Positions 19,263 through 22,200 of a stretch of 64,000 nucleotides of DNA are shown here, piece after piece. The position numbers were made by a program. The stretch is from Cyclobacteriaceae bacterium (GTDB taxonomy: Bacteria; Bacteroidota; Bacteroidia; Cytophagales; Cyclobacteriaceae), in assembly GCA_965217275.1 (NCBI GenBank), contig OZ244400.1, forward strand, positions 4,931,129 to 4,995,128, written 5' to 3'. Every line of letters starts with the position of its first letter. Positions within the stretch are counted from its first letter, which is position 1.

Positions 19263-22200
19263 GCGTGGCGTGGCTCAATAAGAACGCTGAGAAAGACGAG
19301 ATCAAGCCGCAGGTAGACCTATACAAACTGAGCAACGGCAACGAGATCATCCTGCTGGCCGAAGGCCGACTGGTGAATCTAGGCTGCGCCACCGGCCACC
19401 CCTCGTTCGTGATGTCCAACTCCTTCTCTAACCAGGTGCTGGCCCAGATCGAGCTGTGGAAGAACTCCGACCAGTACGAAAACCAGGTGTACATGCTGCC
19501 CAAGCACCTTGATGAGAAGGTAGCCGCCTTCCACCTGGCCAAAATCGGCGTAGAACTGGAGACGCTCACCCCCGACCAAGCCGAGTACATTGGCGTGGAG
19601 GTGAAGGGGCCGTTCAAGCCTGATTATTATCGGTACTAAGTATCTTTTGCTAGATGACAGCTATTTTGCGCCCAGGTTTTTGTTCAAAAGCTCGGGTGCT
19701 TAATTTTTTACTCATTAAAGGTTCTTCTGGCAAATCCTTAAGGTTCGTGTCGACTGGGCCACGGTAGCACGAATCTCCGGATAAGCAATTATCAGAATGA
19801 AGTTTATGAATAACCATTTTTTGCTTGACCAATATGACTTCTTTATCCAACCCATTGGCTAATCTCTTTTGCCGATTATTAGGGTTTTCAATGCTGCTGG
19901 CTGCTGCCGGTTGCGGAACTGACGATCCTAATGACCCCTTTGCTGGCTTTCCGAGAGAAGCTACTATCGAGTACAAGGTCACTTCTACGCAAGCGAACGC
20001 CATCGCTGATGTGGAGTACACCAACGCAACCGGGGGAGATACCGACTTGGACGACCAAATCCTTCCCTTTAGCGTAAAGATTACTAAAACTGTCGAGTTT
20101 GCGGAGATATTCACCCTACTAGCTAGTACTGATGCCTCTTCGGTTACGCTTCAGATTTTGGTAGACGGCCAAATAGTCGAGAATGAAACTTCCGAAACCA
20201 ATTCTTCTTCGCAGATAGCAGTTATCTCGTATCAATTCGGCAGTCAATAGTCTATTAAACTATCAAAGTTTTAATTATATCTAGTAGAAGATCACAAATT
20301 TATAATTCGAGTGCGCGATTAGCGCGTTGATGTTCTATAGGCTCCTGTACTTCGAGATTCATGACTGCTGAATTCCGCACTCGACATAAGTCTATTAGTG
20401 GGTTCGAATCAGTGGACTTTCCGGACTTTACGATACTTACCGGTCGAAACGGTTCAGGAAAAACCCACTTGCTACAGGCTATAGAACAAGGAAAAGTAGT
20501 TATTCAAGGAATACCTTCTGATGACATCCGTTATTTCAGCTACCACTCTTTTGTAGTGTCAACAGCTGATGAAGACGAAAAGCATAGGCAGTGGAATAAA
20601 GAAGAATGGTCTTCACTCCAGGAAGCGCTGCGAGGGGGGTGCAAACATAAGAAGGATGTAAAAGATAAGTATCCTAGCTTATATAAAGCATTAGAACGAT
20701 GGCCGGAAGGTAAACCTCTCGACAAAATAACTAAAGAATCCTTCAGGCCACTCAACCTCCTTTTGCAAGATATTACGGAGGCAGAAGAGCAGTATCACAT
20801 TGCTAAGTTTAAGAACACTTTTATAGAAAAAGAAGTCCTTTCTGGTGAGCTAGCTGCCATTGATAATGATCCACCTAGCGTACTACTAAACGAAGTTTTA
20901 AAAGAGTATGACTGTAATGGCTATCAACTTGCAAGTGAATCAAATTATTCGTCACAAGAAACATATAAAGGATTTAAGGTAGATATGGATGTAAAAGTGG
21001 TGCTCACCCGTGAGGGTGTTAAAGGCATTGATTTTTCTGAATTGTCTTCAGGAGAGCGGACCCTAATGGCACTTTCAATGCTTATTTTTAAAGCCCGGCT
21101 GAATAATATTCTTCCTCGAGTTCTATTGCTGGATGAAATTGACGCTTCACTGCATCCGTCGATGATAGAAAGAATGATACGCGTCATTCAAACTCTGTTC
21201 ATTGAGAAATACGGTATGAAGGTCATCCTAGCGACACACTCACCCACCACTGTAGCGCTGGGCCCTGAAGAGTCTATCTTTGTAATCAGCAATGAGAATG
21301 GGCAGACTGCTATTCAAAGAAAGGATAAACAGAAAGCTATTGATACTTTATCAGACGGATTCATCACTCTTGACAAAGGGCTGCAGTTGTTAGATCAAGT
21401 CGCTCAACAAAGGCTCAACATATTTACCGAAGGTAATAACACAAGTTATATAGAGAAAGCTATTGACTTGTTGGCTCCCGAACTGTCAGACAGTATTAAG
21501 GTAATTGATACCATAAAAGATAGAAGCGGTCATACACAGTTGAAAGTTTTGTATGAATTCTTTTTAAGGTTAAATCATTCCAACTCAGTGCTGTTTGTCT
21601 ACGATTGTGATGTTAAAGGTGAACATAAGGAAGAAAACAACACCTTTTGCTATACTTTCCCTAAAAACAGATCGAATAAGATATTTCTAAAAGGAATAGA
21701 AAATATGTTTTCTGAGTCGCTATTCATTGAGGATCAAGATTACAGTAAAATAGAATATTTAACGAGCAGTAGTCCAAAAATAGAGTATAAACCTGACAAA
21801 GCAAGAAAAGCACAAATCTGTGATCGGATAACCAAAAATGGTACTCCTGAACACTTCGAAAATTTTCAGAGTCTAATCGATAGAATTAGGGTCATTCTTG
21901 CCCAAATCTCTAGTAGTTGAAAACGGATTAGGAAACTTTCGGTCCGTATACAAGTCTGGCGCAGTGCCTCCGGCACTGTGCCTTACATAACCAGGGACTA
22001 TGTCCCGCTACAAATAGTGACGGTTTTTTGATTCAACTATGGATTCAATCGACAGAAAGGTCCATCTTGCTTTGAGATGGGCCTTTTACCCTCCGTGCAG
22101 CGCCACGGCTAACATCGCGGAACGATCAAAGTCCTAACGAGCGTAATACTCCATGGTGATGCTTCTATTGCTCATCGTCGTTTTACAGCGGCTTAACTTC

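Follow-up and report, generated by a model that had tools for sequence, protein, structure and literature searches.

Gene and locus

A 64,000-nucleotide stretch of the genome of a Cyclobacteriaceae bacterium (GenBank assembly GCA_965217275.1, contig OZ244400.1, positions 4,931,129 to 4,995,128 of the forward strand; hereafter the window) was analysed around a single gene at 20361-21920 (+), for which an original prediction, made from the DNA sequence alone, had proposed a lone ATP-binding cassette (ABC) ATPase fused to a TOPRIM/DUF4435-like domain and a role in defence. The gene is an intact open reading frame (ORF) of 519 amino acids (aa) with an ATG start, and lies in an islet between the convergent ahcY and sugar ABC ATPase genes. 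Residue conservation was taken from an alignment of 32 family sequences, and the features of the gene, all on the forward strand, were assigned as follows.

20361-21920 (+): whole candidate system, a predicted fusion of ABC ATPase and TOPRIM domain (ORF call, Pfam, homologue alignment)
20361-21365 (+): predicted ABC ATPase module of the AAA_21/AAA_15 type, residues 1-335, with a helical insertion at ~65-225 (Pfam, profile, model)
20442-20465 (+): Walker A, GRNGSGKT, residues 28-35; G28, N30, G31, G33 and K34 invariant
21042-21056 (+): ABC signature, LSSGE, residues 228-232, invariant (alignment)
21123-21158 (+): Walker B and D-loop region, LLLDEIDASLHP, residues 255-266; D258 and E259 invariant
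21225-21245 (+): H-loop, ILATHSP, residues 289-295; H293 invariant
21348-21398 (+): conserved linker joining ATPase and TOPRIM, LSDGFITLDKGLQLLDQ, residues 330-346; L330, G333 and G340 invariant
21399-21917 (+): predicted TOPRIM domain and C-terminal helices, residues 347-519, homologous over the full length to the reverse transcriptase (RT)-TOPRIM proteins of the retron Ec67/Eco2 family
21429-21440 (+): E357-G-N-N360, first TOPRIM acidic motif (FTEG being residues 355-358); E357 aligned with Eco2 E374
21603-21611 (+): D415-C-D417, TOPRIM DxD; aligned with Eco2 D460/D462
21693-21710 (+): GIENMF, residues 445-450, with conserved E447; aligned with (M/L/I)E(D)(L/F)F of Ec67-family TOPRIM domains
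21807-21809 (+): K483, at least 90% conserved; aligned with a conserved Lys of the sister and Ec67 families

The ATG at 20361 is backed by the homologue alignment, as all homologues align from there; more than 120 homologues scored at E<1e-76. The public gene call of the ORF (P0001) is 483 aa long, begins at a TTG at codon 37 and lacks Walker A. The automated annotation of the gene is therefore truncated (region 20361-20471). Exact-sequence look-ups returned no record for the window protein, P0001 or P0008. Every motif named in the original prediction was present at the spacing given there, including the DxD, which had been placed 59 residues after the FTEG glutamate and falls 58-60 residues past E357. 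The AT-richer segment that had been described was also found, with a GC content of 38.7% for the gene and 41.5% for the islet (19640-22687) against 55.0% for the window.

ABC ATPase

The motifs of the N-terminal half make up a complete ABC ATPase: Walker A, the signature, the Walker B glutamate and the H-loop are all invariant. The signature opens the string LSSGERTLMAL (residues 228-238), and H265 and P266 were also invariant across the family alignment. Pfam searches with the window protein returned AAA_21 (E 8e-21, 75.8 bits, residues 23-298) and AAA_15 (E 3.5e-14, 53.7 bits against a cut-off of 32.1); SMC_N was also matched. When the ATPase family profile was run against the Protein Data Bank (PDB), PtuA of retron Ec83 was the top match (E 5e-13), the PtuA proteins of retron Ec78 and of Septu were weaker, and AriA was also found (E 1.5e-5). 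By sequence, the closest solved relatives of the ATPase are thus the PtuA proteins of Septu and retron type I-A, which pair with a separate HNH nuclease, PtuB, whereas here the partner is a fused TOPRIM domain.

Between Walker A and the signature, helices were placed at 80-183 in the predicted model. The original prediction had noted an uncharacterised insertion of ~190 aa in this stretch; the stretch is present, but it corresponds to the helical insertion usual in AAA_15/AAA_21 ATPases. Most family members have an insertion ~60-70 residues longer than that of the window protein and its two nearest relatives. The linker follows the consensus LS(D/E)GFxTLxxGLxLxDQ, and model confidence is low at residues 330-346.

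C-terminal domain

Three alignments were used for the C-terminal domain. The first (A2) was a profile of 27 C-terminal domains from the family of the window protein, with the window sequence placed first. The second (A4) contained 21 C-terminal domains of a sister family. It was built from distant single-gene relatives of ~600 aa from Acinetobacter, Acetobacter and Leptolyngbya, which were found by tblastn against plasmids and align with the window protein through the C-terminal domain, together with further relatives of these proteins. The third comprised 8 TOPRIM regions from plasmid genes annotated 'retron Ec67 family RNA-directed DNA polymerase/endonuclease', likewise obtained by plasmid tblastn. 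The label PF27394 is listed for 3 homologues.

Profile comparison indicates that the C-terminal ~170 residues are a TOPRIM domain of the retron type I-C (Ec67/Eco2) kind. The sister family bears the canonical TOPRIM pattern, (V/T)EGxTD ... LLYDCD ... KGIENL, and A2 aligned with A4 over the whole domain (hhalign 99.8%, E 1e-28). Run against the PDB, the A4 profile retrieved the retron Ec67 protein (9lm3, 9i2f; E 3.9e-5) and the Toprim protein 1t6t (E 0.14). The Ec67-family alignment was matched directly by A2 (hhalign 95.9%, E 6.3e-9, 162 of 198 columns, including two C-terminal helices) and by A4 (98.0%, E 2.8e-13). The PADLOC RT-Toprim_I-C models matched 19 of the 27 own-family domains (best E 1.3e-7), with no other meaningful model, and 16-18 of the 21 A4 domains (best E 1.8e-9). 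Predicted secondary structure runs beta1-E357, helix, beta2, helix, beta3-D415xD417, beta4, which is the TOPRIM order, and the AlphaFold model of the domain had a predicted local distance difference test (pLDDT) of 87.4 and a predicted template modelling score (pTM) of 0.84.

Weaker links to other TOPRIM proteins were also obtained. Pfam OLD-like_TOPRIM (PF20469) was sub-threshold in 10 of the 21 A4 domains (best E 0.011) and DUF3226 in 6; the VEGKTE...ADCD of P2 Old aligned with the sister-family motifs (hhalign E 3.5e-4, probability 37%); and inclusion of the C-terminus raised the full-length PADLOC scores of AriAB from 50.1 to 71.2 bits and of ATPase-Toprim_I-B from 77.9 to 87.9 bits. On these comparisons, retron type I-C (Ec67/Eco2) supplies the nearest characterised TOPRIM, ahead of AriB and OLD. 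The fusion of an ABC ATPase to a TOPRIM domain, as originally proposed, is upheld by the Pfam ATPase families in one half and by homology to the retron I-C TOPRIM profiles in the other. Retron I-C differs in the rest of the system, in that the window protein has no RT and no msr/msd RNA and its TOPRIM is partnered at the N terminus by an ABC ATPase.

Active site

Six TOPRIM residues were invariant in the family alignment (E357, G358, N360, Q393, D415, D417), and G445-N448 were at least 90% conserved. In the alignment of A4 with 9lm3, the sister-family E, D and DxD fall on Eco2 E374, D378 and D460/D462, and in the window protein E357, D415/D417, E447 and K483 align with conserved Eco2-family residues. 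Retron-Eco2 nicks tRNA acceptor stems, and E374A, D378A, D460A and D462A together abolish its RNase activity (PMC12916289). The window protein departs from Eco2 at the D378 position, which is non-acidic here (the invariant Asn) in a loop one residue shorter. The gap was placed one position apart in two alignments, so that N360 corresponds either to D378 itself or to its neighbour.

Mobile cassette and islet

The junction that holds the islet was compared with those of six related Cytophagales/Cyclobacteriaceae genomes, in which the sugar ATPase is 83-95% identical; the related loci are labelled L001 and L007-L012. The following features of the islet were assigned.

19640-22687 (no strand): AT-rich islet between the convergent ahcY and sugar ABC ATPase genes (41.5% GC; junction comparison)
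20303-21982 (+): shared cassette, made up of the gene and flanks of 58 bp (upstream) and 62 bp (downstream); recurs at another locus in relatives with ~85% DNA identity (L009 1979-3665, L011 2-1387)
21955-21982 (+): hairpin like a repetitive extragenic palindrome (REP), TCTGGCGCAGTGCCTCCGGCACTGTGCC, at the 3′ edge of the cassette; second copy at 35928-35955 (-)
22078-22176 (no strand): degenerate second copy, ~99 bp, of the 3′ end of the sugar ABC ATPase gene, repeating 22680-22775 at 79-88% identity

The distance from ahcY to the 3′ end of the sugar ATPase gene was 59-375 bp in the six relatives against 3,048 bp in the window; the islet is therefore an insertion specific to the genome of the window, which bears out the island context of the original prediction, and is missing from the same junction in all six. 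Three of the six (the contig of L001/L008, L009 and L011) carry homologues of the gene with 74-81% aa identity on the opposite side of the sugar ABC operon, while none was seen within the 10-kb flanks of L007 (the closest relative), L010 or L012. In L009 and L001 the REP-like hairpin borders both ends of the cassette, and exchange of the cassette between repeat-marked landing pads is suggested by the sequences.

Relative to these homologues, the ratio of nonsynonymous to synonymous substitution rates (dN/dS) was 0.25-0.33 for the gene and 0.12 for the neighbouring sugar ATPase, and synonymous divergence was similar for the two; selection has therefore maintained the gene, which has probably changed location within the lineage. 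In all genomes checked, its GC content was 3-16 points lower than that of the surrounding locus. It is an accessory gene under purifying selection that stands at different loci in close relatives.

At 'empty' sites (L007 and L008; L007 11496-11885), ~70 bp of the sequence upstream of the cassette are followed by an ~80-bp palindrome and then by REP copies. The duplicated gene end and the small orphan ORFs of the islet that had been reported earlier were both recovered, the former as listed above and the latter at 19825-20250 (+), 22183-22401 (-) and 22331-22594 (-).

Homologue contexts and family size

Gene contexts were examined for 10 homologues elsewhere, 7 chromosomal and 3 on plasmids. 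No RT, helicase or second nuclease recurs beside them and no neighbour is common to them, which agrees with the earlier description of a lone, single-gene candidate. Their neighbourhoods hold a HepT/MNT pair with DUF433, a DUF927/helix-turn-helix-peptidase island in Aquitalea, a Type ISP restriction enzyme, a tyrosine integrase with a VapE-like primase, DUF3825/DUF4062 genes, and, on plasmids, RelE/ParE or insertion sequence (IS) elements. Because the homologues stand in variable, mobile-element or defence-type contexts, they do not behave as core genes.

Among 50%-identity representatives, the domain profile matched 878 clusters at E<=1e-3, 448 at E<=1e-10 and 176 at E<=1e-30. Nearly all of the matches listed were proteins of 560-630 aa with the domain at the C terminus, and the 150 matches listed were all of this one architecture and gave no bridge to known families. 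The named members are mostly Bacteroidota (Tunicatimonas, Flavobacteriales, Salegentibacter, Azobacteroides), with Aquitalea in addition, and homologues are labelled in their sources as 'AAA family ATPase', 'ATP-binding protein' or transporter ATPases.

A split, two-gene form was considered and rejected. The stand-alone sister-type TOPRIM proteins of ~230-270 aa that were found (P0266 and P0277; L087 5001-5687 and L088 3608-4429) look like remnants of fused genes: one lies in a PIN/Fic/DUF433 cluster, downstream of a gene-poor and probably degraded region, and IS elements interrupt the other.

Proposed function and alternatives

The protein is probably a TOPRIM nuclease that works alone under ATP regulation and whose gene travels on a small mobile cassette; from its domain homologies it is best described as a member of a distinct clade of stand-alone ABC-ATPase-TOPRIM proteins that have a nuclease module in common with retron I-C. 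By analogy with characterised relatives, it is most likely a candidate single-gene anti-phage system of a known general type. In the mechanism proposed, modelled on OLD, GajA, PARIS and retron Eco8, the ATPase would form an oligomer through its helical insertion and ATP-dependent engagement of its heads. Within the oligomer the nuclease would stay inactive until freed by a cue from the phage or by a shift in nucleotide state, and the TOPRIM domain would then cut nucleic acid by metal-ion catalysis and halt the phage, probably at the expense of the host cell. An RNA or tRNA target is weakly favoured over DNA, because Eco2 and the systems of PtuA and AriA cut tRNA.

Several observations weigh against parts of this proposal. 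Scanned alone, the C-terminal 170-220 residues of the window protein had no match in Pfam, PADLOC or PHROGs at E<=10, sequence searches of the PDB with this domain gave none either, and the A2 profile found nothing credible among PDB sequences. The structural comparison that had been recommended with the original prediction did not return the fold: Foldseek searches of PDB and BFVD with the domain model gave no TOPRIM structure, and the best matches of the isolated domain were weak and Rossmann-like (SIS, RecJ, ClpP; E>=0.09). The fold is therefore assigned from profile homology and not from a structural match; since the family profiles show clear TOPRIM homology, the Foldseek result is regarded as uninformative, not contrary. 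The second acidic residue of the Eco2 site (D378) is absent from 32 of 32 members, which read EG-x-N with a loop one residue shorter, and an active site without this residue may work differently or not at all. Some homologue neighbourhoods are plain housekeeping (L090), and the islet of the window holds no recognised defence neighbour. For the choice of target, P2 Old, TsOLD, GajA and the Eco8 OLD protein cut DNA (PMC10568477).

The alternative that fares best, although it is held to be unlikely, is a strict Class 1 OLD nuclease, that is, a DNA exonuclease or nickase whose ATPase modulates cleavage, like P2 Old or the Class 1 OLD of Vibrio cholerae. Like P2 Old and Thermus scotoductus OLD, the window protein is a single chain with an ABC ATPase, a helical insertion and a C-terminal TOPRIM, and both the architecture and the solitary gene agree with this class (PMC10568477); no UvrD-like helicase or retron RT stands alongside here either, in the window or beside the 10 homologues. 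AAA_15 exceeds its Pfam cut-off, the full-length model matched TsOLD 6p74 by Foldseek (E 1.7e-8, 526 columns), the PADLOC Old model matched the family member P0013 through its TOPRIM region, and the P2 Old motif alignment and the sub-threshold OLD-like_TOPRIM matches in 10 of the 21 sister domains point the same way. These are offset by the window protein itself, since neither it nor its C-terminus matched OLD-like_TOPRIM at E<=10. TsOLD was reached by sequence only at E 0.75 and in the Walker A region, template modelling (TM) scores to 6p74 were just 0.25, the TOPRIM is clearly nearer to retron I-C than to the OLD or GajA models, and the ATPase is nearer to PtuA/AriA. The acidic set is also incomplete, lacking the second acidic residue that OLD enzymes keep. 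The UvrD-like helicase gene that lies directly downstream in Gabija has no counterpart beside the gene in the window or beside the homologues examined.

Of the original prediction, the architecture and the island context largely hold, and defence stands as a candidate function. AbiL, the other system to which it had likened the gene, consists of two genes (an AAA ATPase and an RloB/AbiLii-type protein) against one here, and AbiLii is filed under Pfam RloB, not DUF4435. The PADLOC AbiLi model matched the ATPase only (E 1e-18), and AbiLii matched 1 of the 21 sister domains and none of the 27 family domains.

Improbable as well is a single-gene fusion of AriA and AriB, that is, a PARIS system that senses phage anti-restriction proteins such as Ocr and frees a tRNA-cleaving TOPRIM. 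An AAA_21/AAA_15 ATPase and a TOPRIM are present in both, and PADLOC AriAB matched the window protein at E 1.9e-20, with an alignment to residue 435 and 21 bits from the C-terminus. Its best stretch covers positions 301-514 of the 694 in the profile, however, and the C-terminus scanned alone gave no match. AriA models matched at E 1e-23 and AriA chains were found in the PDB, but the AriA match stems from a generic model of AAA_21 length. Fused PARIS genes exist, which counts for this reading (PMC9122126). DUF4435 (PF14491), the defining domain of AriB and the label originally attached to this C-terminus, matched neither the window protein, its C-terminus nor any of the 21 sister domains, so the label is dropped; no AriB chain was retrieved from the PDB with the A2 or A4 profile, and AriAB matched 1 of the 21 sister and none of the 27 family domains against 16-19 for RT-Toprim_I-C.

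Slightly less probable again is a selfish addiction or stabilisation module (a self-inhibited, toxin-like nuclease), or a decaying passenger, with no anti-phage role. Carriage on plasmids, in an integrase island and in a REP-flanked cassette, the frequent adjacency of toxin-antitoxin genes, the existence of truncated remnants and the replacement of the catalytic Asp by Asn are all consistent with it. Purifying selection (the dN/dS values above), the intact ORF, the invariant motifs and the 176 clusters at E<=1e-30 argue otherwise, and the characterised relatives of the two domains all serve in anti-phage systems.

An orphaned or trans-acting retron I-B (ATPase-TOPRIM) effector that would need an RT and multicopy single-stranded DNA (msDNA) from elsewhere can be set aside as very improbable. 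In its favour, the domain order (Eco8-like OLD) is the same, ATPase-Toprim_I-B gave the top PADLOC score for the full-length protein (E 2e-25, residues 215-453), and the TOPRIM is of retron I-C type. Against it, no RT or non-coding RNA is adjacent in the window or beside any homologue examined. The islet holds no RT-sized ORF, the window gave no RNA family in an Rfam search, no RT Pfam family was found by the 7 chromosomal homologues and no RT is annotated by the 3 on plasmids, and NCBIfam retron_eff_Eco8 scored 30 bits against a cut-off of 250.

Returning to the stand-alone, ATP-regulated nuclease, a more specific and distinctly speculative version can be put forward, in which the protein would be an RT-independent cousin of the retron Eco2 effector. 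Its tRNA-nicking TOPRIM would be caged and released by the fused ABC ATPase instead of by msDNA, giving abortive infection from one protein with a remodelled metal site (Asn for the second Asp), encoded on a REP-flanked cassette that hops between landing pads of close relatives.

Other features of the window

Within the islet, the ORFs at 22183-22401 (-) and 22331-22594 (-) overlap, encode 72 and 87 aa, match no family and lie between the ~99-bp direct repeats. Their relatives adjoin MNT/HepT fragments in L001, L008 and L010, and the pair may have come in as a small mobile module at the end of the sugar ATPase gene. The ORF at 19825-20250 (+) encodes 141 aa with a lipoprotein-type signal (lipobox LAAAGC) and matched Pfam Mycobact_memb (MmpS-like; E 3.4e-8); it was not found in L001 or L007-L012.

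Two overlapping ORFs, 25437-25787 (+) and 25753-26121 (+), make up an MNT/HepT-type toxin-antitoxin pair; their L001 counterparts (93% and 87% identity) have Pfam NTP_transf_2/Polbeta and HepT-like matches. The pair has the same position by the permease gene in L007, and lies ~1.5 kb upstream of the ABC-TOPRIM gene in L001. Next to the sugar ABC operon, ~11 kb at ~25300-36100 run collinear with L007 and not with L008-L012, in which the sequence matching window positions 36144-38900 directly adjoins the permease gene; this region is variable and may be a hotspot for accessory genes. An 18-nucleotide inverted repeat (18222-18239 and 18262-18279, 94% complementary, with a 22-nucleotide loop) lies between a birA-like gene and ahcY, has no Rfam match and is probably a terminator or leader element. 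The window contains no tRNA gene that could act as an integration site.

Significance

The architecture is of a known kind and introduces no new principle. Whether a lone ATPase-TOPRIM protein can defend a cell is a question raised in a review of OLD proteins (PMC10568477), and the clade described here, with 176 clusters at E<=1e-30 and a nuclease half that has no Pfam model, would be a clean candidate for this question. The invariant Asp-to-Asn change would amount to a natural experiment on two-metal catalysis by TOPRIM domains. A TOPRIM effector of the Eco2 type joined to another sensor, an ABC ATPase and not RT/msDNA, would also bear on the exchange of modules among defence systems.

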